A DNA stretch of 64,000 nt from a virus. The notes beneath the pieces are model-generated. The model saw only the letters and a program-made list of their open reading frames with translations. It was not told where the DNA came from and ran no database searches. The stretch lies in the IMG/VR virus record IMGVR_UViG_3300046648_000141, positions 3,914 through 67,913 of that record, one strand, 5' to 3'. The translations under genes were made by a program, and so were the position numbers. Positions 2,946-54,572 of this stretch are shown piece after piece. Each line of letters starts with the position of its first letter. The stretch's first letter is position 1.

Positions 2946-2990
2946 GCCGGCAAAACAACGGCTTTCAACGAGACAGGATTTTTGACCTCT

Positions 2991-5022: not shown

Positions 5023-6143
5023 AATTTTATCTGGATGAGAACGTCTTCGACGCCGGCATGGCGCGCATGCGCTGGCTGTTCGATGAGTTCGAAAACATCG
5101 TCGTCAATTTCTCCGGCGGCAAGGATTCGACCGTCTGCCTCAACCTCGCCTTGGCGGTCGCGGAAGAGCGCGGCCGGCTCCCGCTCCCGGTCCTGTTTAT
5201 CGACCAGGAGGCGGAGTGGCAGAACGTCATCGATTATGTCCGCGTCGTCATGTCCGATCCGCGCGTCAAGCCGCTCTGGCTTCAAGTGCCGATCAAGATT
5301 TTCAATGCCACGTCCACGACCGAGCCCTGGCTCAAATGCTGGGAGCCCGGCCGGGAGTGGGTCCGCGACAAGGAACCGGACAGCCTCCACGATAACGTCT
5401 TCGGGACCGATCGCTTTTCGGAGATGTTCGGCGCCGTCTTCCATCACTTCTTTCCGGATGCTCCGGCGATTCACATTGCCGGTGTCCGGGCGGAAGAGAG
5501 CCCGGCGCGGATGAAGGGCCTGACGTCTTATGAGACCTACAAGGGCGAGACCTGGGGCAAGGTCGAGGACAAGCGGCGCCAGCAGTTTACGATGTATCCG
5601 ATTTATGACTGGTCCTACACCGACGTGTGGAAGGCCATCCACGATCACGGCTGGCCCTATTGCAAGCTCTATGACTACATGTATCAGCACGGCGTCCCCG
5701 TGACGAACATGCGCGTTTCGAACGTCCACCATGAGACCGCCGTCCGCCAGCTCTTTTTCCTACAGGAGATCGAAGGCAAGACCTGGGACCGCATCGCCTC
5801 GCGGCTTTCCGGCATCAACACGGCGGGGCAGCTCCAGGAGCAGTTTTTCACGCCGAAAGAGCTGCCGCCGATGTTCAAGGACTGGTACGAATATCGGGAC
5901 CATCTGCTGGAAAATCTGGTGCCCGACGAAAAAACGCGCGCCTACTTCCGGCGCACCTTCGCCTCATATGACGCGCGCTACACCGACGAGGTGCAGAAGA
6001 CGCTCGTCAAGACCGAGATCGGCTGCATCCTGTCGAATGATTATCACGGCACGAAGCTCTCGGTGTTCGCTGCCGGTCACGGGATGTATAGCAAGAACGC
6101 CGGCAAGAAGGGTGGGAGGTTCATTGATGGGCTCCGCACATAA
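5019..6143 (+). CDS. PAPS-reductase-family PP-loop protein (IbrA/YbdN-like)
   Basis: FSGGKDS, FIDQEAE, GVRAEES..R, YPIYDWSYTDVW, MRVS. Confidence 0.88.
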   Translation: MKFYLDENVFDAGMARMRWLFDEFENIVVNFSGGKDSTVCLNLALAVAEERGRLPLPVLFIDQEAEWQNVIDYVRVVMSDPRVKPLWLQVPIKIFNATSTTEPWLKCWEPGREWVRDKEPDSLHDNVFGTDRFSEMFGAVFHHFFPDAPAIHIAGVRAEESPARMKGLTSYETYKGETWGKVEDKRRQQFTMYPIYDWSYTDVWKAIHDHGWPYCKLYDYMYQHGVPVTNMRVSNVHHETAVRQLFFLQEIEGKTWDRIASRLSGINTAGQLQEQFFTPKELPPMFKDWYEYRDHLLENLVPDEKTRAYFRRTFASYDARYTDEVQKTLVKTEIGCILSNDYHGTKLSVFAAGHGMYSKNAGKKGGRFIDGLRT

Positions 6144-21687: not shown

Positions 21688-24600
21688 TTGGCAACCGATC
21701 TTGAGCGTCTTGTTGTTCAGCTAAGCGCAGACGTGAAGGGCTACGAGCGCGGGCTAGCCCGTGCGCGTGGCGTGACCAACCGCGAATTCAACGGCATCGA
21801 AAAGCGCGCCACGACGCTGAACCGCAAGCTGAACGATATCGGCAAAGGCGCGGGACGCTCGTTTGCCGCGCCGGTGGCCGGCATTGGTTCCGCCCTCGCC
21901 ATTGCAGAGGTGATCAAATACGCCGACGCCTGGACGACAGCGGAGAACAAGATCGCGGCGGCCGGAGCGGTTGCCGGCCGGGCAGGACGGGACCTTTCGG
22001 GGATCACCGACATAGCGAACGCGACGCGCGCCGGCATCACCGAGACGGCCGACCTTTACGCCAAGCTGCTTCGTTCCACCAAGGACGTTGCGAAGAATGA
22101 GGAGGAAGTCGCCAGGGCGACGGAGATCGTCAATAAGGCGTTCAAGGCCGGCGGCGCGGCTGCTCAGGAGCAAGCGGCGGGCGTCCTGCAATTGGGACAG
22201 GCCCTTGGCTCCGGCGTGCTTCAGGGTGACGAACTGCGGTCTATTCGTGAGAACGCGCCGCTGATCGCGCAAGCCATTGCCGACGAATTCGGCGTCACCA
22301 TCGGCAAGTTGAAAGACCTTGGGGCGGAAGGCGCGCTTACGTCCGATCGCGTTTTCAAGGCTATCCTGAAAGCCCAGCCGCAAATCGAAAAGGCGTTCTC
22401 GGTCACCAACGCGACCATTGCGGACAGCTTCACCAAGATCGAAAACCAGTTCATCCGCTACATCGGCCAGACCAACGAAGGTCTCGGCGCCTCAAAGCGG
22501 CTGACAGCCGGGCTCAACTTGCTGGCCGACAATTTCGATGCGACGGCCGACACCGCCATCGCCTTCGCCAGCATCCTCGGCGCTGCGCTCCTCGGCCGTT
22601 CGATCGGCAACATGATTGCTTCCATCGGGCTGGGAATCGGAGCGCTCAAGAAGCTCTATAGCGCATTCAAGGCGCTGCGCACGGTTGGCGCTGCCGGCCT
22701 CCTCGGGGCTACTTCGGGTGCGGCCGGACCAATTGGCGCTGCGATCGCCGTGGGTGCCTTGGCTGCGGGTGCCGCGATCACGCATTTCCAGCTCAAGGCG
22801 GCAGAAGCCGAAGAGCGGTCCAAGCGCGTAGCGGCCGAAATGGAAAAGATGGGCATCACCTCCCATCAGGCCGCCGCAGGTGTGGATGAAACCGCCTTAT
22901 CCCTGGAAAAGATTTCGAAAGGCGATGCGGCGCGGTCACTTCGGGACATCAATGATGAGCTGGACCGCATGCGTGGCGGCGGCCTTCCGGGGAGCCTGGG
23001 CAACGAGCTGGGCTCCATTGCAGAGAAGGCGCGCGCCCAGACACGCGGACTTGTCGGCTTTTTCTCTACCTCCGCGATCGACAACACGGCGCTGGATCAG
23101 ATCGCCAAACTCGCCGACGATGTGCGTGACGGCAAGATCGCGGCCGATGAAGCGTTGAAGACGCTTCAAGCAATGGCGGATACCGAGATCAGCCGCCCGG
23201 TCTATGACCTGAACAAGGCGCTCCAGGTGTCGATCGCACTTTTTCGAGACCTCCAGACCGCTCAGAAGATGAAGGCTGAGACGCCCGGCGTCCGGGTGCT
23301 TACGCTCAGCAAGCAACTTGAGAAAGACACGAAAGATTATGCCGCTGCCGCCGATCAGGTGCGCAAGGCCGCCCAGGATGCGCTGGACCGTCTCAACCAA
23401 GTCCGCGATGTCTTTGGCAATGATCCAGCCTTCCAGGCCCAGGTAACGGCGCTGGAGACCGTCCGCGACTCGCTTGACGGAACCGCCGAAGGATCAAACA
23501 AGGCGAAAGCAGCGCTACAGGCGCTCGCTGATAGTGACCCAGGCTTTGCCGGTCTTGCCGCCAAACTCAATCCCCTCCTCGATAGGCTTGGCGAAATCGG
23601 TGCTGCCATAAAGACGGCGGCCGAAGGCTTGTTCCAGCTAAACCGCGTTGACGGTCCCACCAAATTCATGCCGCGCGAAGGCGTCCAGGCGGAGCAAGAA
23701 GCGCGCAAGCAGGCCCAGACCACGAATTTTCTCCGTGAAAGGACGGCAAAATCGGCCGGCAAATATGAGGCGTGGACCGTCATCGGCAGGACGTCGGAAG
23801 GCCGGTTGATCGTCGTCAATCCCGACGAAGGCTTGTCAACCGAACTCACGCAGACCGTCGAAGACCCGCGCGGCGGCTTCATGAACGTGCCGACGCTGTT
23901 CTCCGGCAAGCCGGTGCCGATCGAGGAGGCAGTCGATAAGATTATCAAGAACGGCTTCAAAGACCCTGAAACCGGGAGGGCGATCGAGAATTTCAAAACG
24001 GTCGATGCGGCTGTCAAGGCGGCTCAGGCGCGGAGCGCGTCTCTGTCAAGCGACCCCAAATTCATCGAGGCCGATCGCAAATATACCGAGGTAACCGACC
24101 CTGATCTTGCGGAGCGGACCCAGAAAATCCTGAAGGCCGCCGAAGAGGTCGGCGTGGCGATCAGCGAAGCGGCTGCAAAAATCCAAGCCGAGTCAGAGCT
24201 TGCCGCTGAAAAAGCAGCGAAGGATATTCAGAAATCGGCGGAAGCATCGACCGAGGCCGCCTTCAAGCTGATCGCCGACCGCGAGTCGTTCCGTTCGACC
24301 CCCTACAAGGACAATGACGGCAAGCTGCGCGTCGGCTTCGGCTCGGACACCGTGACGCTGTCGGACAATTCAATCCAAAAAGTCGTTTCAGGCATGACGA
24401 TCACGATGGCCGACGCCACCCGTGACCTTGATCGCCGGATTGAAGAATTCCAAAGGGGCATCAAAAGCGATATCGGCGCCCCGCGCTTCTCGGAGTTCAA
24501 CGACGATCAGCAAGCCGTCCTCACCAGCATCGCCTACAATTACGGCTCGCTGCCGGATCGCATCATCAAGGCGATCAAGGAGGGAACCACCGAGGACATC

Positions 24601-25593
24601 TATAACGCCATCAAGGGCCTTGGCGGCGACAATCAGGGCATCAATCGAAACCGCCGGAACGCCGAGGCCGAGCAATTCCTGTCCGGGGCACCGGCCGGCA
24701 TCCGCGAAGAGATCACCCAGCGCCAAGAGCAACTGAAATACATCCAGGAATCGTCGGCGGCGCGCGCCGAGGAAACCGCCGGCATCAACGCCGAAACCTC
24801 GATGATGAGCGCTTCCAATGCGGAGCGGGAGCGGGAGCGGTTTGTTCGCGAAGCGCTGAACGATCTTCAGAAGCAAGGCATCGTCGTCACCGACGAAATG
24901 CGCGCTTCCATCGAGGCTGAAGCCGATGCCCGCTTCAATGCGGTTTCCGCCTATGATGCGGCAACGGAAGCGGCCGACCGCCTGAAGGAGAAGCAGGAGG
25001 AGCTGAAAGCGGTTCAGGAGGAGGTGTCTTATGCCTTCCAGGGCGCGCTCAAGGGATTCATTTCCGATCTCGTTCACGGCAAGTCAGCGACCGAGGCGCT
25101 TTATAACGCCGTCTCGCAATTGGCCGATCGCCTGCTTGACATCGCCCTCGACCAAATCTTCAAGTCGCTGTTCAGCGGCGGCACCGGGGCGGCCGGCGGA
25201 CTCCTCGGTGGCTTGTTCGGCGGCTTCGCGGCCGGCGGCTACACCGGCGACGGCGGCAAGAACCAGCCGAAGGGTGTGGTTCATGGCGGCGAGTATGTCT
25301 TCTCGAAAAAGGCGACAAACCGGATCGGCGTTGCCAATCTGGAAGCGATGCACAAGGCCGCCCGGCGCGGCTACGCCCAAGGCGGATACGTCCTGCCCCG
25401 GATTGGCGGGGCCGGCGGCATGGCGCAAGCCGGAGCCGCCGCGCCGAACGTCGATGCCCGGACGACGGTCATCAATCGTTTTGACGCTCCATCGTTCCTT
25501 TCGGAAGCGCTGGCGCACCCGGACGGGGCGAAGACCATCCTCAATGTTATCCGGGCGCAACCTGCCGTATTCCGGCAGGCGTTGCAGGGCTAA
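21688..25593 (+). CDS. tape measure protein with embedded lysozyme-like domain
   Basis: QLGQALGSGVLQGDELRSI tape-measure motif; C-terminal FAAGGYTG..GVVHGGEYV. Confidence 0.92.
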   Translation: MATDLERLVVQLSADVKGYERGLARARGVTNREFNGIEKRATTLNRKLNDIGKGAGRSFAAPVAGIGSALAIAEVIKYADAWTTAENKIAAAGAVAGRAGRDLSGITDIANATRAGITETADLYAKLLRSTKDVAKNEEEVARATEIVNKAFKAGGAAAQEQAAGVLQLGQALGSGVLQGDELRSIRENAPLIAQAIADEFGVTIGKLKDLGAEGALTSDRVFKAILKAQPQIEKAFSVTNATIADSFTKIENQFIRYIGQTNEGLGASKRLTAGLNLLADNFDATADTAIAFASILGAALLGRSIGNMIASIGLGIGALKKLYSAFKALRTVGAAGLLGATSGAAGPIGAAIAVGALAAGAAITHFQLKAAEAEERSKRVAAEMEKMGITSHQAAAGVDETALSLEKISKGDAARSLRDINDELDRMRGGGLPGSLGNELGSIAEKARAQTRGLVGFFSTSAIDNTALDQIAKLADDVRDGKIAADEALKTLQAMADTEISRPVYDLNKALQVSIALFRDLQTAQKMKAETPGVRVLTLSKQLEKDTKDYAAAADQVRKAAQDALDRLNQVRDVFGNDPAFQAQVTALETVRDSLDGTAEGSNKAKAALQALADSDPGFAGLAAKLNPLLDRLGEIGAAIKTAAEGLFQLNRVDGPTKFMPREGVQAEQEARKQAQTTNFLRERTAKSAGKYEAWTVIGRTSEGRLIVVNPDEGLSTELTQTVEDPRGGFMNVPTLFSGKPVPIEEAVDKIIKNGFKDPETGRAIENFKTVDAAVKAAQARSASLSSDPKFIEADRKYTEVTDPDLAERTQKILKAAEEVGVAISEAAAKIQAESELAAEKAAKDIQKSAEASTEAAFKLIADRESFRSTPYKDNDGKLRVGFGSDTVTLSDNSIQKVVSGMTITMADATRDLDRRIEEFQRGIKSDIGAPRFSEFNDDQQAVLTSIAYNYGSLPDRIIKAIKEGTTEDIYNAIKGLGGDNQGINRNRRNAEAEQFLSGAPAGIREEITQRQEQLKYIQESSAARAEETAGINAETSMMSASNAERERERFVREALNDLQKQGIVVTDEMRASIEAEADARFNAVSAYDAATEAADRLKEKQEELKAVQEEVSYAFQGALKGFISDLVHGKSATEALYNAVSQLADRLLDIALDQIFKSLFSGGTGAAGGLLGGLFGGFAAGGYTGDGGKNQPKGVVHGGEYVFSKKATNRIGVANLEAMHKAARRGYAQGGYVLPRIGGAGGMAQAGAAAPNVDARTTVINRFDAPSFLSEALAHPDGAKTILNVIRAQPAVFRQALQG

Positions 25594-40154: not shown

Positions 40155-40179
40155 CCCGGTTACACCTGAACTGCATTTC

Positions 40180-40441
40180 ACCTTGCTTCGCCGTGCCCTG
40201 CTTTGCCCCGCCCCGCCCAGCCGTGCCTAACCGTGCCACGTCATCGCCGTTCGAAAATTCACAAACCTCAATCCTTGCTTTGCCTAGCCCTGCCCCGCCT
40301 TGCCCGGCGCTGCCAGGCCCCGCGTCGCCCAGCCGAGCCTAGCCTTGCCTCGCCTTGCCCGGCCGTTAGAAATTCTCAAACTTCAATCCTTGCTTCGCCG
40401 TGCCGGGCCTTTCCCGGCCTGACCTTGCCGTGCCGTGCCAG
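40180..40441 (-). repeat. GGY-NN pentamer array A (3 segments, 2 conserved separators); candidate ncRNA
   Basis: plus strand (RCC-NN)n with near-strict 5-nt period; separators AAATTC(A/T)CAAAC(C/T)TCAATCCTTGC 115 nt apart. Confidence 0.85.
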
Positions 40442-40448
40442 GGGAATC

Positions 40449-40712
40449 TCACTCGCGGCTTTGGAGCACATCAGCCACGAAGGCGGCGCACTCGTCGTGC
40501 AGCATGTCCAAGGCGATCTGAATAGGGTGGCCCAGCTCTTCCGTCATCGTCAGCAAACGCTGAGCGGCGACGCATCCGGAATAAAAACTGCGACGGATTT
40601 CCTGGTACTGGACGGAGTCGGCCGCCAGCCCGTCGTCGTAACACGCCTTGATGTAGCTCTGGTAAAGCTGCTCAATGAAGTGCGTCCGCTCCGGATTTTC
40701 ATTGTCGTTCAT
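40449..40712 (-). CDS. hypothetical protein
   Basis: VQ..E.RR.FY.G motif; coupled ORF. Confidence 0.6.
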   Translation of the reverse strand: MNDNENPERTHFIEQLYQSYIKACYDDGLAADSVQYQEIRRSFYSGCVAAQRLLTMTEELGHPIQIALDMLHDECAAFVADVLQSRE

Positions 40713-41287
40713 GCCGGTGTCCTCCCGATCCGGTCTGCCAGGACCGCGCGTTCGATCTCAGTCAAATCCCAGGCGCCGCAGACCAGCCACGTGTCGCCAC
40801 GGCCTATCCTCCGGAGCAACATCGGGTCCGGGGGAATGTCTTTCCAGTTGGCCTCAAACAGGATGTGATAGTTCGCCAGACCGCGCGCCGGGCGGATATC
40901 CGGCGGGATATGTGGAACCATCGCTTCGGCGGCTCGATGGCGGGCCGGGAAAGTGCCATCCGGGAATTCGATGTAGCGGCTCTTGGCGGTATTGCCGGTG
41001 ATCCATTTCAGGTCGGACGCCATGCGGGCGGAGCCGTCGTAGCGGATGGTCAGATGGCAGCGGGCGGCGTCGGCGCGGGCGATGCCGAGGAGCGGCAGAC
41101 CGAACTCATTGACGCCGGCCGCCTTGATTGAAGCGAGCGCCCGAACGACCTTCCGGCCTTTCGAGATGAGATAGTAAATCCGTTCAATCTCCTGATCGAT
41201 CGGCGTGGAATGGGCGCGATGCTCCCGGTACTTCCGGTACAGTCGGGCCGCCTCGCCAACATCGAGGTCAAGCGTCTGGGTCTCCAT
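40709..41287 (-). CDS. hypothetical phage protein
   Basis: VP.IPP..RP, YHILFEA.W..PPDP.LL, AWDLT..ER. Confidence 0.7.
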   Translation of the reverse strand: METQTLDLDVGEAARLYRKYREHRAHSTPIDQEIERIYYLISKGRKVVRALASIKAAGVNEFGLPLLGIARADAARCHLTIRYDGSARMASDLKWITGNTAKSRYIEFPDGTFPARHRAAEAMVPHIPPDIRPARGLANYHILFEANWKDIPPDPMLLRRIGRGDTWLVCGAWDLTEIERAVLADRIGRTPA

Positions 41288-42056
41288 TGCCTTTCTCCCT
41301 TTTGCCAGAGGCGAGCGCGTCGAGATAACGCCGGGCCTCTGCTAACTTCATTGTTCCATCGGCAACCTTGCCGGCGATCTCGCCGCACTTCCGGACGAAG
41401 GGCTCATCGTCCGGCAGCGTCTTCGTCCACGCGCTTGCCAGCCATTTCAGTCCGTCATGCCGGGCTTCGACGGTCAGGCTTTCATCGGTCGCATAATGCA
41501 GGAATTTGGTGACCGCCTCCGGCTTGAGCGAAGGCGGTTCAGGTGATCGCGGCAGCGACGCCGGTCTATGGGCCGTTGCACCGGCGCCGCTGCCTTCATC
41601 GACGCCGCTGGAGGCCGGCGCCGACGGTTCCTGATCTTTTCCCGGATCAGCCGATTCCTTGGAAAGCGTCTCGGGATCAACGCCGGTCATGCGATGGAGG
41701 AGCAACATCGCCCCTTCATAAAATTCCTCAAACTCCGGCTCTTCCAGATCGGTCAGGCTGCGAGGATAGACAACCTGAGCGCCGCCGACCGTCCGGCCGT
41801 CCTCGATGACGCCGAGGAGGCGCTTGAGTTCATTGTTCAAACCATCGACCGTGCGAAACTTGGTGGGGCAATCCTTCACCACGCGGGCGAGGATCGCGAA
41901 ATACTTCCGGCGCTTCCAGGTCTGATCGGCCGCCGGCTTGAGCGTCATGATCGTACCATTGCGGAAGCTGTCCAGGCGCTCCTCGGTAAACGGGTCGGCC
42001 GGCGTCAATTTGCCGGGACCGACGACCATGCGCAGCGGGGGAAATTCGCTCTTCAT
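41268..42056 (-). CDS. hypothetical protein (DUF1367/NinB-like N-terminus)
   Basis: RKYFAIL..PRSL..EF..FY; recombination-module position. Confidence 0.5.
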   Translation of the reverse strand: MKSEFPPLRMVVGPGKLTPADPFTEERLDSFRNGTIMTLKPAADQTWKRRKYFAILARVVKDCPTKFRTVDGLNNELKRLLGVIEDGRTVGGAQVVYPRSLTDLEEPEFEEFYEGAMLLLHRMTGVDPETLSKESADPGKDQEPSAPASSGVDEGSGAGATAHRPASLPRSPEPPSLKPEAVTKFLHYATDESLTVEARHDGLKWLASAWTKTLPDDEPFVRKCGEIAGKVADGTMKLAEARRYLDALASGKREKGNGDPDA

Positions 42057-42697
42057 GCCGGCACCTTCACAGCGAGTAGTTTCTCGAAATCATGAAACAT
42101 CTTCATCAGCTCCCTGATCCCGGCGAGGCCATCACTCCGGGCCGCCTCCGCAAGCAGAGGGAAACCGGAGTTGATCGAAGCATCAACCTCGGCGCGGGTC
42201 GCCCGGCGTGCCTTGGCGTAAAACTCAATCTCTGTCGGATCACCGATGCGGAAGAGCACGCCGTTATGAACGTCCATCCGATCATAGGAGTCCGTGACCC
42301 AGATTGCGCAGACGCCCGGATTGCGATCGATCATCTGACCGGCGACATGCCTGTCCTTCGGCAGATCGCGCTCATTGCGCTTCGCCATCGGCTGCGTGAG
42401 GAACGGGCAATTCTTCGCCGCGAACCGGGCGCACGTGTAGTGGCTCGGCGGTTCAGACGACACCCGGTTGATGCAACACATGGGGCCGATCACGAAAGCC
42501 TTGTGTCGGCCCATCGTGTCACCGCATAGCCAGCAGAGCTTGCGGCGGTAACAGTCCGATACCCAGCCGGGCTTGACCAGACGGAAGTCCGGGATGCCGT
42601 CACGGGTGTGAACGAACCTCGGGACAGGGAACCCGCGCGCATCGCGGGGTAGTCGTTCGATGCGCGCGGGCATGTCCGTGAACAGACGGTCAATCAT
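42053..42697 (-). CDS. Cys/His-rich hypothetical protein
   Basis: RGFPVP, CWLCG, EPP.H..CA......CPFL. Confidence 0.65.
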   Translation of the reverse strand: MIDRLFTDMPARIERLPRDARGFPVPRFVHTRDGIPDFRLVKPGWVSDCYRRKLCWLCGDTMGRHKAFVIGPMCCINRVSSEPPSHYTCARFAAKNCPFLTQPMAKRNERDLPKDRHVAGQMIDRNPGVCAIWVTDSYDRMDVHNGVLFRIGDPTEIEFYAKARRATRAEVDASINSGFPLLAEAARSDGLAGIRELMKMFHDFEKLLAVKVPA

Positions 42698-42966
42698 GCC
42701 AGGACCTCTTTTGCTCGCTGGAGGGCGGCGCCGAATGTCCACGGGCCTTTCCTGGCGATTTCATTCCAGCCGTCCGGCAGGACCGACACGGACGAGCGGC
42801 CCGGCAAGACGGCCACCTTGCTGTCAACCGCCGCGTCTTTGACGCCGCGAAATTGCAGATACTGCGCAATCAGGCAGCATGAACCGTCCATGTAGTCGTA
42901 GCGCTTGGCGGGGTCCTTCCTGCCGAGAAATTCAATCAGGCTTCTATTGTCGAAGATCGGTCTCAT
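42694..42966 (-). CDS. hypothetical protein
   Basis: Y.Y.D..C.IAQY..PWTFGAAL.RA. Confidence 0.6.
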   Translation of the reverse strand: MRPIFDNRSLIEFLGRKDPAKRYDYMDGSCCLIAQYLQFRGVKDAAVDSKVAVLPGRSSVSVLPDGWNEIARKGPWTFGAALQRAKEVLA

Positions 42967-42992
42967 TGCACGTCCTCCTTCTGGGGTTGGGG

Positions 42993-43931
42993 TCATTCCT
43001 GGACTGCGACACCGAGCGCCCGAAGGCGCCGGTTCTTGATATTCAGGCAAAGCTTCTGATCATCCTCGGACGCCTGGAAGCGGGCCATAGGGTCCATTTC
43101 GGTCCAGATTTCTTCGACCGTCTCCGCGTCCGGCGCCTCAGTGAGACGGTCACGCAGCTGATCGAAGAAGGACCAGTCAACATCCGGATCGGTCTCAGCA
43201 CCGGATGTTTCCTCGGCGCCGGCCACGGACGTTTCCTCAACCACACCGTCGATCATCGGGCCTTCGTCTTGTTCCGCCTCCTCGGCGGGCGTTTCCGTTC
43301 CGGCGGGCAATGCATCCGGCCGTGGCGGGCGCGGCGCCTGACGGACATCTGGGAGCGGCGTGAGCCGGTTCTCCGCGACTCGCTGCCCTTCCTCTTCATC
43401 GAAGATGCCGGCAAAGCCGAAAGCATAGCGTGCGCACTGGATCAGCGACTTGTGCCGGAGCATCCGGTGGGCCATCTTCCACGGGTCAGTATCGCGCCAA
43501 CACTCGGACAGATATTCGGTGACCGCCGTGGGGTGGGTCCGGTCCTTGCGATAGATCGTGCACTCGCACGAATACAGCTTGCCGTTATCCTCATGCACCT
43601 CATCGAATTTGAAGCCGTCGCACGCCGGGTGCGAGTTGACGAGGTTTACCCATCCGTCGATCGAGACGATCGGGACAACGCCGCCGCCGCGTTTCGGATA
43701 GGCGAAGATTTCGCGGGTGATCGGATTGAGTTTGTACTCCCGCGCGACCAGCAGGAAGGCGGCAAACTCTTCGCGGGTCAGCGGCCGGAACTGCTCCCCC
43801 TTCTTCGGTGCCGGCGAACATGTCGCCCGGACGGTTAGCTCAAACGCTTGTGGTTCCATGCCGAAGCGGGCGGCCATGTCGTGAAGGACCGAGCGCGGTT
43901 GGTCCTGTCTGGTTGCGATTGCGGTATTCAT
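42993..43931 (-). CDS. RecT/Bet-like single-strand annealing protein
   Basis: LNPITREIFAYP..GG.VPIVSIDGW, EYLSEC..PW....RMLRHK..IQCARYAFGF.GI.D. Confidence 0.9.
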   Translation of the reverse strand: MNTAIATRQDQPRSVLHDMAARFGMEPQAFELTVRATCSPAPKKGEQFRPLTREEFAAFLLVAREYKLNPITREIFAYPKRGGGVVPIVSIDGWVNLVNSHPACDGFKFDEVHEDNGKLYSCECTIYRKDRTHPTAVTEYLSECWRDTDPWKMAHRMLRHKSLIQCARYAFGFAGIFDEEEGQRVAENRLTPLPDVRQAPRPPRPDALPAGTETPAEEAEQDEGPMIDGVVEETSVAGAEETSGAETDPDVDWSFFDQLRDRLTEAPDAETVEEIWTEMDPMARFQASEDDQKLCLNIKNRRLRALGVAVQE

Positions 43932-43942
43932 TGCATTGCCTT

Positions 43943-44280
43943 TCTTTGCCTCACCGAGCCTAGCCTAGCGCCACCTAGCAACGCCTAGCCTCACTGTTCC
44001 ACGCCTAGCCTTGCCGTTCGAAGCCCCGCCCCGCCATGCCGTTGCCGGCCTTGCCCTGGGCAAAATTTTCAAACATCAATCCTTGCCTCGCTCGGCCGTG
44101 CTACGCCTTGCCCGGCTCAGCCTATCCTCGCAATGCCACGCCGTTCCGTGCCAAGCCTCGCCCATCACTGCCCTGCTGAGTTTCGAAATTCATAAAACTC
44201 AATCCTTGCCTTGCCTCGCTTCGCCGCACCGCGCCAAGCCGCGCCTTGCCTCACCATGCCCAGCCACGCCTTGCCCCGTT
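43943..44280 (-). repeat. GGY-NN pentamer array B (3 segments, 2 separators) directly downstream of RAMP-like gene; candidate ncRNA
   Basis: 5-nt period; separators ending TCAATCCTTGC at 44076 and 44199. Confidence 0.85.
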
Positions 44281-44288
44281 CGGGGTGT

Positions 44289-44897
44289 TTAAGCTGCCTG
44301 GGGCAGGCGAACCGGCTCCTCCCGCTCCTCTTCCCATTTCACGACGACGAAGCGGCCGAAGGGTCCTTTCGTCGCCGGCCGGAAGTCTCCCAGGCCGATG
44401 CGCTTGCCGGCGTCATCAATGATCTGACGCATCAGCTTTTGGCTCATGATTGAAATGTCGAGATCGAGCACGAAATCTAGCCGCCAATCATCGAACAACG
44501 GTCTATGGGACAGGATGCGTCCGCCGGTCGAAGGGATGCGGACGGGCCGCGTATCAACCCGCCAGGGCTGCTCATGGATGATCGGAATTGTCGCACCTTC
44601 GACATCGACGCAGGAGAAGAGCATGGATGATTTTTGCGTCGTCACTTGGCTCTTGCCAACCTTGTGGAAGCGTCCGCCTTCGACAAGGCAGCGCAGCAAG
44701 TTCGGCTGGGGAATGACCAGTTCACCCTCAAGCCCGTGATAGAGTTTTGAGGACGCGATCTCCAAAGGTGTCCCGCGATCCGTCGTTGCTATTGAGGAGC
44801 GAGTCCCGCTCGTCGCTGCCTCGGCCGCCTCATCCGTGAAGCGATTGCAGAGGAGTGGTGTGATGCCTTCAATGTTGACTTGGATTTTCACGTTCAT
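44289..44897 (-). CDS. Cas7/RAMP-like protein (no other cas genes)
   Basis: N-terminal I.G.TPLL strand, IP..NL..CL..GG, RP.F..W...F, C-terminal Gly-rich loop AG.RIGLGDFRP..GPFGRF.V. Confidence 0.7.
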   Translation of the reverse strand: MNVKIQVNIEGITPLLCNRFTDEAAEAATSGTRSSIATTDRGTPLEIASSKLYHGLEGELVIPQPNLLRCLVEGGRFHKVGKSQVTTQKSSMLFSCVDVEGATIPIIHEQPWRVDTRPVRIPSTGGRILSHRPLFDDWRLDFVLDLDISIMSQKLMRQIIDDAGKRIGLGDFRPATKGPFGRFVVVKWEEEREEPVRLPQAA

Positions 44898-44927
44898 TCT
44901 CCGTTTTGGTTGCCGTGCTTTCAGTTT

Positions 44928-45003
44928 TCCTTGCTTTGCCTCGCCTTGCCGAGCCCTACCTCGCCAGTCCCAGCGTCGCCGAACCCCGCCCTGCCACGCC
45001 TCG
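44928..45003 (-). repeat. GGY-NN pentamer tract C upstream of RAMP-like gene
   Basis: about 15 pentamers (plus strand tcc-tt gct-tt gcc-tc gcc-tt gcc-ga ...). Confidence 0.8.
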
Positions 45004-45004
45004 T

Positions 45005-45226
45005 TTATCGTCTCGGCGGCGGCGGCCTCTCTTCAGAGTGCCGCGTCGAAATCACCGGCCCGCGTTCTTTCCGGCCGGGATATGCTAGTGAGAAAGCCCA
45101 CATCATCGGGACCAGTAAGACCATCGCAGTGACGCACAAGGCTGCGGGCAGGGTGCCGGTTAGGTAGGCGGCGGTGATCAAGAGGCCGGCCGCCGTGGTG
45201 TATATCGTCCAGGCCAGCACCTTCAC
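45005..45226 (-). CDS. small membrane protein
   Basis: two hydrophobic segments. Confidence 0.45.
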   Translation of the reverse strand: MKVLAWTIYTTAAGLLITAAYLTGTLPAALCVTAMVLLVPMMWAFSLAYPGRKERGPVISTRHSEERPPPPRR

Positions 45227-46173
45227 GACCCGCGCTCCTTGGGCATTTGCCGGCCGGCGCGAAACTTCCTGGCCTTATCTATCCACCACGAAAAGCGGTT
45301 CTCACCGACCATTTTGATGGCGCCGCCGCCGACGACATACAAGCGATCCTCGCGGAAAGCCTCATAAGCCGAGATCGCAATCCGCAAGATGGCTGCGTGG
45401 TTATCGTGACCGACTGTCTTCCCGTCGCGGCCTAGTCGATATATCCGCTCCTGAAACGCCTGAACCGCATCCATCTCGCCTTCTATCTTGGTGCCTTTGC
45501 CGGTCGCGTAGGTTGACCAGAACGCTTTCGCATCGGTGCCGTGGCGGCGAAACGTCAGCAGGGCCGCCGCCATTACGGGAGAGATGAATTTGTGACGTGT
45601 GGGACCGCACTCATCGAGCAGTGTCAACTCGGGTAGCCAGTCGAACAGCATTTCATAAAAGCCCCGTCCGCGAATCTTGCCCTTGACGTTGCCGTAAAGC
45701 GTTTCCTGGGCGATCCGCATAGCGGCGCTGAACCGCCCGCTTTGCATCAGCTCGGATTGGAACCTGACGTTCTTCTCCTTCAGGCCGCCGAAAACCCGGT
45801 CGGCTGCATTCTCAACCGCGTCCTGGCTGTCGAACGTCATGTAGAGGTCTTTGGCGTCCTCCTCGGTCCGGCAATCCCACACGTCGGCATAGATCACGTC
45901 CGGTGCCGGAACCTCGCCGGCCGTCCACAGGAACGAGCGTGAGTGACCGTCAAGCTTCATCAGCGTCCCGTCCGGAAACCGGGCGATATTGACCTTCTGA
46001 TGGGAGGGGTGAAGCGTGCGCAGATGATAAGCCCGCCGCGCCCGGCTTTCGGTGTCGCGCTGCCGGGTGTTATCCGGGATAGCCGCGAACGATGCCTTAT
46101 CGAGAGTGACCACACCACCGTAGCGGACCCGCTCGTCCGGCGTGAAGCCCGTGTTGAACGTTTCGATTTTCAT
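45223..46173 (-). CDS. divergent ParB/Srx-like domain protein
   Basis: AGGAGG RBS; N.RQR..LDGHSR..FD. Confidence 0.55.
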   Translation of the reverse strand: MKIETFNTGFTPDERVRYGGVVTLDKASFAAIPDNTRQRDTESRARRAYHLRTLHPSHQKVNIARFPDGTLMKLDGHSRSFLWTAGEVPAPDVIYADVWDCRTEEDAKDLYMTFDSQDAVENAADRVFGGLKEKNVRFQSELMQSGRFSAAMRIAQETLYGNVKGKIRGRGFYEMLFDWLPELTLLDECGPTRHKFISPVMAAALLTFRRHGTDAKAFWSTYATGKGTKIEGEMDAVQAFQERIYRLGRDGKTVGHDNHAAILRIAISAYEAFREDRLYVVGGGAIKMVGENRFSWWIDKARKFRAGRQMPKERGS

Positions 46174-46198
46174 GCCGTCCTCCTGTTTCCCACGCATC

Positions 46199-46516
46199 TC
46201 AATATCCCCTCGGCGGAACGTAGAGGCAGAGGGTCCTGGACGTGTCCAAGCCGCCGAGGCTACACCAGTGGAATTCACCGTCCGGCGATTCCCTGATGCG
46301 GGAGTCGCGGTAGCTGAGCACTTCGCCGGTGCTGGAAATCTGGTAGCCCATCGGCGTCTCTTTGACCCGGACGCCGGGATCATGATTGACCTCGCGGCAA
46401 TCGATGCCGGAGCAGCATCGGAGGTCATACCGCCAGCCGGCGGGAGCGTCGTGAGCCTGAACCGTGCCGGCGATGAGACCGGCGGCGATGATGAAACTGC
46501 AATTCATTCCAAGCAT
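46199..46516 (-). CDS. secreted Cys-rich protein
   Basis: signal peptide ending VQA-H; GWRY..CCS..DC..SPDG.FHWC..CLYVP. Confidence 0.7.
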   Translation of the reverse strand: MLGMNCSFIIAAGLIAGTVQAHDAPAGWRYDLRCCSGIDCREVNHDPGVRVKETPMGYQISSTGEVLSYRDSRIRESPDGEFHWCSLGGLDTSRTLCLYVPPRGY

Positions 46517-46532
46517 TCCAGCACCTCCTGAA

Positions 46533-46593
46533 ACCACGCTTTGCTTCCGCTTTGCCCTGCCCCGCCACGCCCAGCTCCGCCGAGCCAAGCCAA
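46533..46593 (-). repeat. GGY-NN pentamer tract D
   Basis: plus strand gct-tt gcc-ct gcc-cc gcc-ac gcc-ca gct-cc gcc-ga gcc-aa gcc-aa. Confidence 0.7.
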
Positions 46594-46595
46594 GG

Positions 46596-47606
46596 TCAGA
46601 CGGCTCGTTTTTCCTCGATGATCTCCATGCCGGCGACGGTCTTCTCCAGCCGCGCGTACCGATTGGCAATCCGCTGGGCCGTCTCCTTTAATTCTTCTTC
46701 ATCCATGATCGCGGCCAGGAACGCTTCGAAGTCCGTTATCATTCCCGTGCGATAGGTCCGGAGCGACGTCTTCTCGCCGGTCGGCCCGGCCTGGGGACGC
46801 TGAAACTCCGCTTCCCGCTCCGCTTCCTTGGCGGCGGCTACCTTGGCGCCGGCTTCGCGCTGAGCGTCCGGGCTGTTGGCTTTCCGCGCTTCCTCTTCAG
46901 CCTCCAGCCGCAACCGCTCGGCCTCCATAGCTTTCTTGGCAGCGCGTTCGCGTTCAAGCCGCTCTTGTTCCTTGAGCCAGACCGTCGCGCGTTTCTTGAG
47001 CAGTTGCGCGTAGCCGGCCGGTTGCTCACGCAGCTCCCGCCAGCGCGCATCGACCTTTTTGCCGGCGACGATCAGAGGGGCCTTCTCGACGGCGTGAAGG
47101 TTGTCCGCACGGTTGCCGATGCCCCGGAGACGCTTCAACAAGACGGCCTCGCTGTCGGCCTGATCCTTGGTCGTGAGTGGCGCTTTCAACGCGGTTTCGA
47201 CCAGCGCCTTTTCACCGATGAACTCAGCCATCAGCTCATCGTGCGGGTCGGCCTCCCCGGCGGCGGCGGAGTTGTGCCCGATGCCGGTAGGCGTGACTTT
47301 CTCCGGCTGATCGGCCCAGCCGTTGCCGGCTACCGCCCGGTCAAAGGCTTCCTCGGTGATCGGGTTTTTGCAGGCCCACAGCCAGAGGTCCGGAATGGCT
47401 TCCGGGGTTACAGCATGCCCGGAGCGGGCGGCGCACCAGACGCCGGTTTCGTCCTGCCAGAACTGGACGGGCTCCCAGGCTTCACCCTTCCGGCGGACCC
47501 GGAAAAATCCAGTCCACGGAAGTCCGTCATGAATGGCGAGCGGGCCTTTCCCGATCTTGGAAGGATCGGCGAGCGCAAGCCGCCACTTTTCCCAGGGGTC
47601 TGACAT
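46596..47606 (-). CDS. hypothetical early protein (coiled coil)
   Basis: 336 aa; GIGHNS motif, EKAP...GK.VD.RW. Confidence 0.7.
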   Translation of the reverse strand: MSDPWEKWRLALADPSKIGKGPLAIHDGLPWTGFFRVRRKGEAWEPVQFWQDETGVWCAARSGHAVTPEAIPDLWLWACKNPITEEAFDRAVAGNGWADQPEKVTPTGIGHNSAAAGEADPHDELMAEFIGEKALVETALKAPLTTKDQADSEAVLLKRLRGIGNRADNLHAVEKAPLIVAGKKVDARWRELREQPAGYAQLLKKRATVWLKEQERLERERAAKKAMEAERLRLEAEEEARKANSPDAQREAGAKVAAAKEAEREAEFQRPQAGPTGEKTSLRTYRTGMITDFEAFLAAIMDEEELKETAQRIANRYARLEKTVAGMEIIEEKRAV

Positions 47607-48232: not shown

Positions 48233-48703
48233 TCATTGATCCTCTTGCCGTTTGGGGTTTTTGCCCTTCAGTTTCGACTGCGCTTTCCGTGCCTCCAGTG
48301 ACCGTAGGCGGTTATCGATCATCGCTTGGAAATGCTCATAGAGGGGGTCGTATTCTTCTGGGGGCAGCAATTCCAATCTTGCATCAATGCTTGGCTTAGC
48401 CACGGGGCTACCTGCCCCGGTCGTGAGCCATGCTATTGAAATAGTGAAGGTCTCTGCTATCCGTTCGAGATTGGCGCGCTTGACGCCTTTCCCTACCTCC
48501 CAATTCCCCACGGCTCCGCGCGTAACGCCGAGCCGGGCTGCGAAATCGGCCTGTCGGTCGATCCCCAATATCTCGGTGCGGAGATAACAAACGCGCTTGC
48601 CGAGTTCGATGTCGGCTTGCGGATTAGTCTCCCGCGTTCTTCCTGTTTTTTTAGCCGCTGGTGCGTCGGCGCGGCCACTGCCGAGAGGTTTCCCGCTCGC
48701 CAT
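48233..48703 (-). CDS. CI-like XRE repressor (no S24 peptidase domain)
   Basis: QADFAARLGVTRGAVGNWEVG..IA.....WL.TG.G; divergent from cro-like gene. Confidence 0.85.
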   Translation of the reverse strand: MASGKPLGSGRADAPAAKKTGRTRETNPQADIELGKRVCYLRTEILGIDRQADFAARLGVTRGAVGNWEVGKGVKRANLERIAETFTISIAWLTTGAGSPVAKPSIDARLELLPPEEYDPLYEHFQAMIDNRLRSLEARKAQSKLKGKNPKRQEDQ

Positions 48704-49837: not shown

Positions 49838-50269
49838 ATGACCCATCCTGACCATGATGAAGGGAGCAAGTGGAATGATGCCGATCGGGGCCGCGTGGCG
49901 GCGATGCTCAAGCAAGGTATGTCGCGCCGTCAGATCGCCCTCAAGATGGGCATCACCCGCAACACTTGCGCAGGCCGGATTCATCGCGACGATGATTTGC
50001 GCGCCGTCGCGCCGGGCCGCCTCCCGCCCAGTCCGAAGAGGGTCGCGCCAGTGATGCCTCCCCGAGACATCCCCCCGCCGGTCATGCGCCGGGTGCCGTT
50101 GAAAGACGTCGGCCAGGACGAGTGCACTTGGCCGGTCACTACGGTCCCAGATCGCAAGGTGATCGGCGCCTTTCTCTTCTGCGGAGCCGAGACGGAACCG
50201 TTGGCGATGTGGTGCCCCTATCACGGGCAGCTTGGATATGCGCCACCTCGGGAGCGTCGTCATGGGTGA
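49838..50269 (+). CDS. GcrA-like cell-cycle regulator
   Basis: W.D....G.S..QIA..G.TRN...G.IHR and L.D....C.WP...FCG....C.YH. Confidence 0.85.
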   Translation: MTHPDHDEGSKWNDADRGRVAAMLKQGMSRRQIALKMGITRNTCAGRIHRDDDLRAVAPGRLPPSPKRVAPVMPPRDIPPPVMRRVPLKDVGQDECTWPVTTVPDRKVIGAFLFCGAETEPLAMWCPYHGQLGYAPPRERRHG

Positions 50270-51521
50270 TAGGCGAACATTCCTTGACGGTCGCGTGACG
50301 CTGCATTGCGGCGACTGCCTACAAGTGCTCGCCGGCATGCCCGACGCTTGCGTCGACTCGGTGGTGACCGATCCGCCCTATGCCCTGGTATCGATCGTCA
50401 AACGGTTCGGCAAGGCGAACGCCGCGCCGGCAAAGGGCAACGAAGCGTATATGCGCGCCTCGGCTGGCTTCATGGGCAAGCAATGGGATAACGGCGAAAC
50501 CGCTTTCGCGGTCGCGTTTTGGTCCGAGGTCTTGCGCGTTCTCAAGCCGGGCGGCCATGTCGTCGCCTTCTCCGGCACGCGCACTTATCACCGCCTAGCG
50601 ATCGCGATCGAGGATGCAGGATTCGAAATCCGCGATCAGCTCGCATGGGTTTACGGTTCGGGCTTTCCGAAATCGCACGACGTTAGCAAGGCGATCGACA
50701 AGGCGGCCGGAGCGGTAAGGGACGTCTTAGGCGAAAAACGCGCCGGGCTTGCACGAAAAGCGCGCGCAGGCGGCGAGATGGCTGGCGGCGAGCCAAGCTT
50801 TGAACATCTTCGCCGCGCTGACATCACAGCCCCAGCCACAGAAGACGCCGCCACCTGGGAAGGATGGGGAACGGCGCTAAAGCCGGCATGGGAACCGATC
50901 GTGTTAGCGCGCAAGCCGCTTATCGGCACGGTCGCGACCAACGTCTTACGCTTCGGAACCGGTGCCCTCAATATCGACGCGTGCCGCGTTGAATCGGACA
51001 TGCCAAGGCCGGATCGAGTCAAGATCGGCGCCAATTCCAACGGCATTTACGGCAACGGTCTTAATAATTCACGCGCCGTTGATGACACTACGCGCGGTCG
51101 ATGGCCCGCGAACCTTGTGCATGATGGTAGCGGCGAGGTCGTGTCATTCTTTCCCCTCGAAATCGCCGGCTCGGCCGCGCGCTTCTTCTATACCGCCAAG
51201 GCCGACGCCGACGACCGGATCGGCTCGAAACATCCCACGGTCAAGCCGGTCGATCTGATGCAATGGCTTGTCCGCATGGTGACGCCACCGGGCGGCATTG
51301 TGCTTGATCCCTTCGCCGGCACCGGCACGACGGCCGAGGCCGCTTGGCGCGAAGGCATGCGATGCATCCTTGTCGAGCGCGAAACCGATTATCAGGCCGA
51401 TATTGCCCGGCGGATGGAATTGGCCGTTTACCCCACGAAGCGCGCCGCCGTCACCAAGAGCAAAGGTAAGCTGCGCGGCGCCGAGGGCACACCGCTTTTT
51501 CCGGAGGCCGGCGAATGCTGA
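50262..51521 (+). CDS. DNA methyltransferase (N6A/N4C, beta class)
   Basis: VTDPPY, LKPGG, HPTVKP, VLDPFAGTGTT. Confidence 0.92.
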   Translation: MGDRRTFLDGRVTLHCGDCLQVLAGMPDACVDSVVTDPPYALVSIVKRFGKANAAPAKGNEAYMRASAGFMGKQWDNGETAFAVAFWSEVLRVLKPGGHVVAFSGTRTYHRLAIAIEDAGFEIRDQLAWVYGSGFPKSHDVSKAIDKAAGAVRDVLGEKRAGLARKARAGGEMAGGEPSFEHLRRADITAPATEDAATWEGWGTALKPAWEPIVLARKPLIGTVATNVLRFGTGALNIDACRVESDMPRPDRVKIGANSNGIYGNGLNNSRAVDDTTRGRWPANLVHDGSGEVVSFFPLEIAGSAARFFYTAKADADDRIGSKHPTVKPVDLMQWLVRMVTPPGGIVLDPFAGTGTTAEAAWREGMRCILVERETDYQADIARRMELAVYPTKRAAVTKSKGKLRGAEGTPLFPEAGEC

Positions 51522-53179: not shown

Positions 53180-53754
53180 TTATCCTTGGCCTCGATCAGT
53201 CGATAACCCGGACAGGCTGGGCGCTTTATCGCTTCCCCGGCGATGAGCGGCACATGAGGTGCGGCTCGTTCTCCTGTTCGGATGAGGCCGACGCCGACGC
53301 CAAGTGTGAGCGCTTCGCCCGTGAGATTAAGCGGCTGGTCGGACCCCAGGAAACGCGGCCGGACTTCATTTGCTGGGAGAAGGCCAAGCGGCAAATCTCC
53401 GCCTACCCCAAGAAGCCGAACGCCGATCTGCTCGGCCTGGGCGGCCAGGACGTTTGGACGGTCAACGCCGATCAGCTCCTCCTCCCCGAAATTCAGGGCA
53501 TCATCCGGGCGGCGACCGTCTTCTATCGCGTGCCGCACGAGTCGGTATCGCCGGCGACATGGCGGGCTGCGATTTACGGCAAGGGCGGCGGCAAACTATC
53601 GCGCGTCGATGCCAAGGCGCGGGCCAAGGAATACTGCCAGGCCCTCGGTATCAAGTTCAGCGGCGACGATCAGGCGGAAGCCGCGTGCATCGCCCGGTGG
53701 GCCGCGACGTGCTCTATCGCCTTCCGGATGCTTATGGCGAGGGCGGCGGCATGA
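53176..53754 (+). CDS. RuvC-like Holliday junction resolvase
   Basis: ILGLDQSITRTGW, E, V.P.TWR, DDQAEA. Confidence 0.8.
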   Translation: MIILGLDQSITRTGWALYRFPGDERHMRCGSFSCSDEADADAKCERFAREIKRLVGPQETRPDFICWEKAKRQISAYPKKPNADLLGLGGQDVWTVNADQLLLPEIQGIIRAATVFYRVPHESVSPATWRAAIYGKGGGKLSRVDAKARAKEYCQALGIKFSGDDQAEAACIARWAATCSIAFRMLMARAAA

Positions 53755-54572
53755 TCCAGTTGCGCGTCCTGTCCCTCGGTGCCGGCGTCCAATCGACCAC
53801 GATGGCGCTTATGGCCGCTCATGGCGAAATAGGCCCGATGCCAGACGCCGCGATATTCGCGGACACCGGGGCAGAACCGAAGCCGGTCTATGATCATCTC
53901 ACATGGCTGATGTCGGCCAACGTGCTCCCCTTCCCCGTCTATGTCGTCAGCGCCGGGAACCTCCGGGACATCCTTACGGGCAACGCCCACTGGAAGGGCG
54001 GCAATGACGGCCGGCCGCCGTTCTACGTTGTCAACGACAAGGGCGAGGCCGGCACGCTCAACCGCCAATGCACCCGTCATTTCAAGATTGATCCGATCCG
54101 CCGGAAGGTGCGCGAGCTGCTCGGCCTGAAGCACGGGCAGCGCGGACCCAAGACCGCAGCGGCGGAGCAATGGATTGGCATTAGCCTTGACGAAGCCACC
54201 CGCATGAAGCCGTCGCGTGACCGCTACATCGAAAGCCGGTGGCCGTTGATCGAAAAGCGGATGACGCGCCGGGACTGCCTGAAATGGCTTCAGGCTCATG
54301 ACTATCCGCTGCCGGCAAAGTCGGCCTGTACTTTCTGCCCGTTCCGCAATGAAATCGGCTGGCGCGACCTACGCGACAATGACCCGGCTTCATTCGCCGA
54401 CGCCGTTGCCATCGACAAGATCATCCGGGACGGGATGCCCGGCGTGAACCGCTCCCAGGTGTTCATCCATCGGTCGCTCAAGCCGCTCGATGAGGTCGAT
54501 CTATCGACCGCCGAGGAGCGCGGCCAGCTCAATCTCTTCATCAATGAGTGCGAAGGGATGTGTGGCGTATGA
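53751..54572 (+). CDS. PP-loop (PAPS-reductase-like) protein with Cys motifs
   Basis: LSLGAGVQST, FADTG.E, RQCT..FKI, IGIS.DE, KSAC.FCP, ECEGMCGV. Confidence 0.8.
   Translation: MIQLRVLSLGAGVQSTTMALMAAHGEIGPMPDAAIFADTGAEPKPVYDHLTWLMSANVLPFPVYVVSAGNLRDILTGNAHWKGGNDGRPPFYVVNDKGEAGTLNRQCTRHFKIDPIRRKVRELLGLKHGQRGPKTAAAEQWIGISLDEATRMKPSRDRYIESRWPLIEKRMTRRDCLKWLQAHDYPLPAKSACTFCPFRNEIGWRDLRDNDPASFADAVAIDKIIRDGMPGVNRSQVFIHRSLKPLDEVDLSTAEERGQLNLFINECEGMCGV

Follow-up and report, generated by a model that had tools for sequence, protein, structure and literature searches.

A probable VIPR system in the leftward operon of a lambda-like temperate phage from plant roots

Here, we describe a repeat-guided locus in a 64,000-nucleotide stretch of viral DNA (IMG/VR record IMGVR_UViG_3300046648_000141, positions 3,914 to 67,913 of that record; referred to as “the window”, with position 1 as its first letter). 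The locus, which consists of a 202-aa gene (vipr, 44289–44897, minus strand) and of arrays of GGY-NN repeats in four intergenic sites, is very probably a Viral Interference Programmable Repeat (VIPR) system of a lambda-like temperate siphophage, probably of Rhizobium, that would block a competing mobile element by the mechanism proposed below. VIPR systems were first described in 2026 preprints (10.64898/2026.04.26.720920; 10.64898/2026.04.26.720927). As defined in this work, a VIPR locus comprises a RAMP protein, Vipr, and vrRNAs of 9–16 YNNGG units with a 3′ tail, usually together with a vap gene, and the loci are mostly viral and divided into seven types (10.64898/2026.04.26.720920). The NN dinucleotides are reported to read double-stranded DNA on either strand with one base skipped per unit, binding represses transcription, and the natural targets described are satellites, prophages and other VIPR loci (10.64898/2026.04.26.720920). 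The locus is real, but with VIPR already in print its kind is not new. The picture of what VIPR is remains unchanged; the window provides a clean, complete example in a temperate, probably rhizobial plant-root phage, far from the studied Escherichia and Pseudomonas systems.

A preliminary description, made from the sequence alone, had reported four minus-strand tracts in which a nearly constant GGY triplet alternates with a variable dinucleotide, and no such tracts elsewhere in the window. Both statements hold. A sliding test with a threshold of 6 or more GGY per 8 phased units detected 10 segments, all of them on the minus strand and all within 40178–40444, 43936–44285, 44926–45000 and 46547–46596. 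With a stricter array caller, the window gave 7 arrays, each on the minus strand, compared with a mean of 0.1 (maximum 2) in 100 dinucleotide shuffles of the window and of 0.01 (maximum 1) when only the four tracts were shuffled (200 times), and the whole 67,913-bp record contains no arrays beyond the same 7 calls. The four intergenic sites were parsed into nine repeat tracts with 117 phased 5-nt units, 90 of them with a perfect GGY. Per-position entropy amounts to 0.90, 0.14 and 0.81 bits at positions 1–3 versus 1.85 and 1.86 bits at positions 4 and 5, and all 16 dinucleotides are represented at the NN positions. The 5-nt phase of the preliminary description is borne out, but its single arrays of 10–22 units are not, as the long tracts consist of one to four separate guides with 7–18 units each.

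In the direction of transcription, all guides being on the minus strand, vrRNA A (46591 to 46542; 10 units, 7 perfect) lies just past the stop codon of an exonuclease gene, and vrRNA B (45000 to 44931; 14 units, 11 perfect) lies upstream of vipr and ends 33 nt before its start codon. vrRNA C1 (units 44275 to 44206, with tail 44173–44275; 14 units, 13 perfect; tail GGATTGAGTTTTATGAATTTCGAAAC...) starts 14 nt past the vipr stop codon, and two of the tracts therefore adjoin the gene, as originally noted. It is followed by vrRNA C2 (units 44172 to 44083, with tail 44056–44172; 18 units, 11 perfect, degenerate), the C3 remnant (44055 to 44021; 7 units, ending in the tail-like TTCGAAC) and vrRNA C4 (44015 to 43941; 15 units, 10 perfect), which stops 10 nt short of the recT start codon and whose last unit contains the recT ribosome-binding site. 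The last group comprises vrRNA D1 (units 40439 to 40390, with tail 40365–40439; 10 units, 8 perfect, then a 25-nt tail), vrRNA D2 (units 40364 to 40275, with tail 40238–40364; 18 units, 15 perfect) and vrRNA D3 (40237 to 40183; 11 units, 9 perfect), the last before a helix-turn-helix (HTH)/excisionase-like gene. C1, C2, D1 and D2 each end in a common tail of ~26 nt (GGATTGANGTTTNNGAATTTYSRAAC), and A, B, C4 and D3, which are the last guides before the next gene, run into its leader and have no common tail. A 3′ handle, ...RGCAAGG, is present on eight of the nine tracts. Altogether, some eight guides would be usable (A, B, C1, C2, C4 and D1–D3), and one tract (C3) is a remnant.

Sequence and model evidence identify the product of the 202-aa gene as a genuine Vipr, an ancestral RAMP/Cas7-like protein. 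Its sole sequence match in PDB at E ≤ 10 is 36pp_D, the Vipr protein of Escherichia phage SUSP1 (phmmer, E 9.2e-8), with the G-loop GLGDFRP..FGRF aligned over GVGDWRP..FGRF of SUSP1; the resemblance to VIPR noted in the preliminary description is real homology. A profile of 45 sequences matched the homologous Vipr encoded by Escherichia phage allfine, a Felixounavirus, over 170 columns (hhalign, 99.3% probability, E 9e-21), and phrog_4652, a family of unknown function, was matched over the full length (E 1.4e-19), while no model of Pfam, NCBIfam or PADLOC matches the protein. By tblastn, 106 phage records were found, mostly Felixounavirus-like coliphages and Salmonella phages, 92 of which cover at least 80% of the query at about 24–31% identity. 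The RAMP/Cas7 fold proposed for the gene is supported by an AlphaFold2 (AF2) model with a predicted local distance difference test (pLDDT) of 93.0 and a predicted template-modelling score (pTM) of 0.86. In a Foldseek search of PDB with this model (118 matches at E ≤ 1e-3), the top matches are all Csm3/Cas7 backbone subunits, namely Csm3 (type III-A), type VII Cas7, Cas7-11 and Cmr4, the best being 9ash_F (E 3.6e-7, TM-score about 0.55).

The residues that hold the guide in SUSP1 can be followed into the window protein. In the cryo-EM structure of SUSP1 Vipr, G1 is contacted by H17 and D177, G2 by R138 and W178 and Y3 by R179, K33 holds the backbone beside the skipped base, and a tyrosine, Y176, is found at the position equivalent to W178 in another solved Vipr (10.64898/2026.04.26.720927). 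By alignment only, the corresponding window residues are N18 (H17), R33 (K33), R132 (R138), D171 (D177), F172 (W178) and R173 (R179), and these six functional residues were scored as four identical ones and two conservative replacements, likewise on the alignment. No variation was seen among the 45 sequences at R132 or at G168, G178 and G181 of the conserved G-loop GLGDFRP..GPFGRF, nor among 25 closer sequences at D171 and R173. The family is large, with 1,769 clusters at E ≤ 1e-3 in a word-indexed search and 2,570 representative clusters in an exhaustive search. The best named relative is a hypothetical protein of Rhizobium ruizarguesonis (89% identity); a Vipr homologue was found in 14 of 401 sampled genomes of one phylum, and plasmids yielded one distant protein match and no DNA matches.

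Arrays accompany vipr well beyond the window. In IMG/VR, a profile scan detected 276 relatives, and 80 loci with 52–98% Vipr identity were kept (related loci are labelled L plus a number below); some of these loci are duplicates, and counts across them are partly non-independent. Same-strand arrays are present in 52 of the 80 loci (152 arrays) and opposite-strand arrays in three (3 arrays), and in 49 loci an array lies within 600 nt of vipr, so that homologues are indeed flanked by such tracts. At their 3′ ends, the guides of the clade have ...GGCAAGGCAAGG and then a short AU-rich tail, which varies by sub-clade. Array styles differ greatly among the relatives: L050 (347–2040, plus strand) contains 14 guides upstream of vipr, each with a ~35-nt tail (GGTTTTTTTGAGGGG..AATATAC), and L070 (3143–3945, plus strand) a compact array of 12 guides spaced only by GGATTTTAG.

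These data bear on the possibility that the tracts are unrelated to the gene and represent low-complexity coding sequence of the plus strand, iterons bound by a protein at the DNA level or G-quadruplex-prone repeats. Although plus-strand open reading frames (ORFs) overlap the tracts (44011–44292, 93 aa; 40203–40868, 221 aa) and the tracts are rich in G with a strict period, a coding repeat could not have a period of 5 nt, GGY is fixed while NN is hypervariable, the arrays across the 80 loci lie on the vipr strand (152 versus 3) and track vipr over the whole range of protein identity, and the identical GGY-NN architecture has been shown experimentally to be an RNA in SUSP1 (10.64898/2026.04.26.720920). 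We therefore give this explanation practically no weight.

The absence of cas genes from the window, already proposed in the preliminary description, was borne out by a PADLOC scan, in which none of the 60 window ORFs matched a Cas model. An Rfam scan detected no family between or at the guides, including no hammerhead and no CRISPR direct repeat. On these two grounds, a class 1 CRISPR-Cas locus was considered and ruled out. What Vipr has in common with the class 1 backbone subunits (Csm3/Cmr4/Cas7, types III and VII) is the fold (Foldseek TM-score about 0.55, E 4e-7 to 4e-5) and the guide-RNA filament with periodic base flipping, which is established for Cas7 and reported for Vipr (10.64898/2026.04.26.720927). 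In contrast to class 1 systems, sequence identity is only 10–15%, there is no repeat-spacer array and no cas1, cas2, cas6, cas10 or cas3, and the step is 5 nt instead of 6 nt, with dinucleotide reading and a gapped target. The related proposal that the locus has no nuclease holds for the VIPR module but not for the operon, which includes a lambda-Exo-like exonuclease (46596–47606).

The reading rule could be assessed at the level of the clade. We compared 121 unique guides of at least nine units with 656 kb of related loci plus the window genome, with arrays masked and 10 shuffles per guide. At skips of 0, 1, 2 and 3 nt, the number of guides beating the best of the 10 shuffles was 3, 17, 4 and 4, and the number beating it by at least two matches was 0, 5, 1 and 0, respectively. 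The published 1-nt-skip rule is thus supported at the clade level over skips of 0, 2 and 3. The clade analysis independently reproduces two published claims, the 1-nt-skip rule and guides aimed at rival vipr genes.

Among the guides of relatives, one located immediately upstream of vipr (L023, 3836–3890; also in L024 and L027) has 19 of 22 matches in the vipr genes of L014, L015, L016, L020, L051 and L053. Its target is the stretch of vipr that encodes a conserved N-terminal motif, ..I.GITPLIC.., where skipped bases coincide with wobble positions, and it matches its own vipr and the window vipr (44840–44875) at 18 of 22 positions each. Judged by these matches, it is a putative anti-VIPR or autoregulatory guide. 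Guides of L042 (1660), L062 (5366) and L066 (2810) match RusA and SF2-helicase genes located downstream of vipr elsewhere in the clade (L045/L047/L059 at ~5075–5133; L052/L059; L055/L057 at 6072–6124), above shuffles. Apart from the L023 guide and two guides scoring one match above the best of 10 shuffles, guides of relatives found nothing in the window genome. When the window guides were compared with their own genome at skips of 0–3 nt (100 shuffles each), no target exceeded the null except for a trivial self-match at skip 3.

While the genes are nearly constant, the arrays are not. L004 is the closest comparison, with 98% identity to the window in Vipr, 96% in RecT and 89% in the exonuclease. 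It keeps D3 (identical), C4 (units 5–15 identical) and the front of C1, contains other guides at the A, B and D1/D2 positions and lacks C2. The front of C1 is joined directly to the C3 remnant, and this junction looks, from its sequence, like the product of recombination between guides. Natural variants were obtained as contigs from four other root and rhizosphere runs that are largely collinear with the region. One 18.5-kb contig replaces exactly 40178–40254 (D3), 40364–40461 (D1 and surroundings) and 46496–46598 (A), with one further diverged 80-nt stretch inside a gene; in the X5 variant, D3 is replaced and a different guide occupies the A site, and insertions of 30 nt and 5 nt occur inside C1. 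Changes cluster in the arrays, in steps of whole pentamers. Guide arrays that shift by whole 5-nt units between nearly constant flanking genes are field evidence of fast guide turnover.

Such turnover is informative with respect to what the guides are for. A genuine Vipr–vrRNA complex might regulate the phage's own programme or host genes (operon autoregulation, host takeover) instead of silencing rivals, and it would be in keeping with this that no rival-element target was found for the window guides, that the system lies inside the early-left operon near xis and recT, and that the 18/22 match of the upstream L023 guide to its own vipr 5′ coding region would fit feedback control. We nevertheless regard a regulatory role as improbable, since the window guides have no target above the shuffled null in their own genome at any skip, the natural targets described so far are satellites and prophages (10.64898/2026.04.26.720920), and the guide sets of near-identical phages differ, with the differences concentrated in the arrays, which is the signature of an arms race and not of fixed regulation.

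A number of results weigh against a VIPR system that silences competing elements. The preliminary description had expected the NN dinucleotides to spell a gapped target, for example in competing phages; for the window guides, this expectation was not borne out, as the NN patterns match no better than shuffled controls in the collections scanned, but these did not include Rhizobium, the likely host, and the outcome is not a fair failure. Against the 656 kb of related loci, no window guide exceeded the null. Exact 10-unit scans of IMG/VR with D3, D1, C1 (units 2–11) and D2 (units 1–10) gave 0 matches each, an 8-unit seed of B gave two matches that rescored at a chance-like 21 and 20 of 28, and an 8-unit seed of D2 (units 10–17) gave four that rescored at a likewise chance-like 19–23 of 36. 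A 9-unit seed of C1 yielded 35 matches in Joint Genome Institute (JGI) metagenomes, the best with 24 of 28 and none with a convincing extension. On a soil-metagenome contig (L115, 998–1038, plus strand), C1 is matched over 12 consecutive units (24/24 bases), in frame and with the skipped base at the wobble position. By a rough estimate, about 0.01–0.04 such extensions are expected by chance among 35 seeded matches. Against a genuine target, the match lies inside a 236-aa ORF without a Pfam family, on a contig with 49% GC and no phage marks, and it is probably due to chance.

The remaining points of this kind concern the locus itself. A tblastn search with a Felixounavirus vap1 query found the gene neither in the phage genome (best E 3.0) nor in the 80 related loci, and a neighbour gene conserved across the clade was not found either. 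The strict caller detected no array in 28 of the 80 loci; these include the most distant, lower-GC ones, and degenerate units may escape this caller. The guide tails fold no better than shuffles (z −0.5 to +1.0), a search for RNA runs carrying the locus listed none, and C2 and C4 are degenerate. With several guides degenerate, part of the arsenal may be decaying. That the entire locus is a decaying or silent relic, with gene and arrays still recognisable but their expression or function lost, is nonetheless very improbable: C2, C3 and C4 have degenerated, no vap gene was found and promoter-like sites are at chance level (4 in the region versus 2.4 ± 1.8 in shuffles, consensus scan), but the vipr frame is intact, its contact residues are all kept or conservatively replaced, C1, D1, D2 and D3 still have 80–93% perfect GGY, complete 5-nt units come and go in phase among the variants, and Vipr keeps 98% identity in L004, where the arrays differ.

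For a functional VIPR system, the mechanism can be drawn up by analogy. RNA binding, DNA binding, repression and a role between phages are inferred from the published work on SUSP1 and a Pseudomonas fulva prophage. For SUSP1, the preprints demonstrate that each pentamer is bound by one protomer, that the protein holds GGY while NN spells out a gapped target, and that repression follows (10.64898/2026.04.26.720920; 10.64898/2026.04.26.720927), which is the mechanism that the preliminary description had outlined for the window. In the window phage, Vipr would polymerise on each vrRNA with one protomer per pentamer, and two adjacent protomers would flip out and hold the GGY bases, exposing the NN dinucleotides. 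The dinucleotides would jointly read double-stranded DNA as NNxNNx..., with one skipped base per unit and on either strand, and the bound filament would stop transcription of a competing mobile element. The guides would most likely be cut from the early-left polycistronic transcript (exo ... vipr ... recT ... xis) during lytic growth or induction, because neither promoter-like nor terminator-like sites exceed chance in the region (consensus scan) and the tails fold no better than shuffles.

The closest known systems are the type II VIPR systems of Escherichia phage SUSP1 (Felixounavirus) and of the Pseudomonas fulva prophage (10.64898/2026.04.26.720920; 10.64898/2026.04.26.720927; 10.64898/2026.10.15.759431). 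As in these, Vipr has ~200 aa with an RRM core, a thumb and a G-loop, the equivalent GGY-contact residues are kept or conservatively replaced, and GGY-NN vrRNAs lie on the gene strand, where vipr is preceded by a single guide and followed by an array. The genome is likewise viral and has no cas genes, and the 1-nt-skip rule is supported in the clade of the window; the absence of self-targets is also common to both, being reported for the published systems (10.64898/2026.04.26.720920). In contrast to type II, protein identity is only about 24–25%, the window and its clade are without vap1, the guides have a conserved 3′ handle, ...GGCAAGG, and two extra arrays lie among recombination genes, at distances from vipr of 1.6 kb on the upstream side and 3.8 kb on the downstream side. 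The inter-guide tails are ~26 nt long with no predicted structure, whereas the SUSP1 clade has a pseudoknotted tail and RNAs of ~100 nt, and the window phage is temperate and probably alphaproteobacterial. Other VIPR types (I and III–VII) are described with staggered, ribozyme-interspersed and single-guide arrays (10.64898/2026.04.26.720920). The window has the GGY-NN code and the minimal locus in common with them, and its relatives include compact arrays whose guides are very closely spaced (L070), but it has no Rfam ribozyme between guides and no nuclease or helicase vap adjoining vipr. Unlikely, though worth stating, is that the clade forms a distinct vap-less sub-type located in the early recombination operon, with promoterless, tail-unstructured guides that would be cut from the polycistronic early mRNA after the ...GGCAAGG handle at the AU-rich tail. 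The making of guides and the loading of Vipr would then be tied to lytic growth or induction, and perhaps also to how the next gene is translated, and some guides of the clade would be aimed at the conserved 5′ end of vipr, as anti-VIPR or autoregulatory guides.

The phage was found in root and rhizosphere samples, and its 67,913-bp record is rated a complete viral record by CheckV. It is a lambda-like temperate siphophage, with terminase, portal, head, tape measure, integrase and repressor genes in the record, and its host is probably Rhizobium, an alphaproteobacterium. The structural genes (terminase, portal, head-protease, tape measure and tail) are encoded by the plus strand and are followed by the integrase and then by the leftward operon. 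As transcribed, the latter reads exonuclease, guide A, a 105-aa gene, a 316-aa gene, a 73-aa membrane peptide, guide B, vipr, guides C1–C4, recT, five genes of unknown function, D1–D3 and the HTH/excisionase-like gene. At the head of the leftward genes lies a CI-like repressor (48233–48703, minus strand; transcriptional repressor families phrog_4, phrog_8 and phrog_2328). Two recombination genes of the operon lie on the same strand, namely the recT/bet-like single-strand annealing protein (42993–43931; Pfam RecT E 1.1e-19, phrog_252 E 4e-58) and its partner, the lambda-Exo-like exonuclease mentioned above (minus strand; phrog_10477 E 7e-21). A tRNA search found none.

Between the exonuclease and vipr, the 316-aa gene (45223–46173, minus strand) matches phrog_2615 and no model of Pfam, NCBIfam or PADLOC, and has a weak ParB/sulfiredoxin-like N-terminal fold. 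Its AF2 model has a pLDDT of 76, and the Foldseek top ranks are almost all ParB, Noc, KorB or Srx (best E ~0.02). An invariant DGH.R motif is found in the family, of which six homologues were detected, one of them (80% identity) in an R. ruizarguesonis chromosome. The gene is missing from L004, whose Vipr is 98% identical, and is a possible accessory gene that is not conserved. The hydrophobic small protein of 73 aa (45005–45226, minus strand) located between this ParB-like gene and vrRNA B is an ORF without a family match and is 79% identical in L004. In 18 of the 80 relatives, an SF2 helicase lies downstream of vipr.

Outside the operon, three further features of the phage were recorded. Two PAPS-reductase-like genes (4902–6143 and 53370–54572, both plus strand) have weak DndC/SspD-like PADLOC matches, and at least two DNA methyltransferases are encoded (2982–3596 and 50232–51521, both plus strand); taken together, the sequences of these genes suggest a DNA-modification module. 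The tape measure protein (1,301 aa, 21688–25593, plus strand) matches endolysin families over residues about 810–1095 and probably carries a built-in cell-wall hydrolase domain. Finally, a 656-aa protein (11745–13715, plus strand) matches both major head protein and head maturation protease families, a pattern that would be expected of a fused prohead protease–capsid gene.

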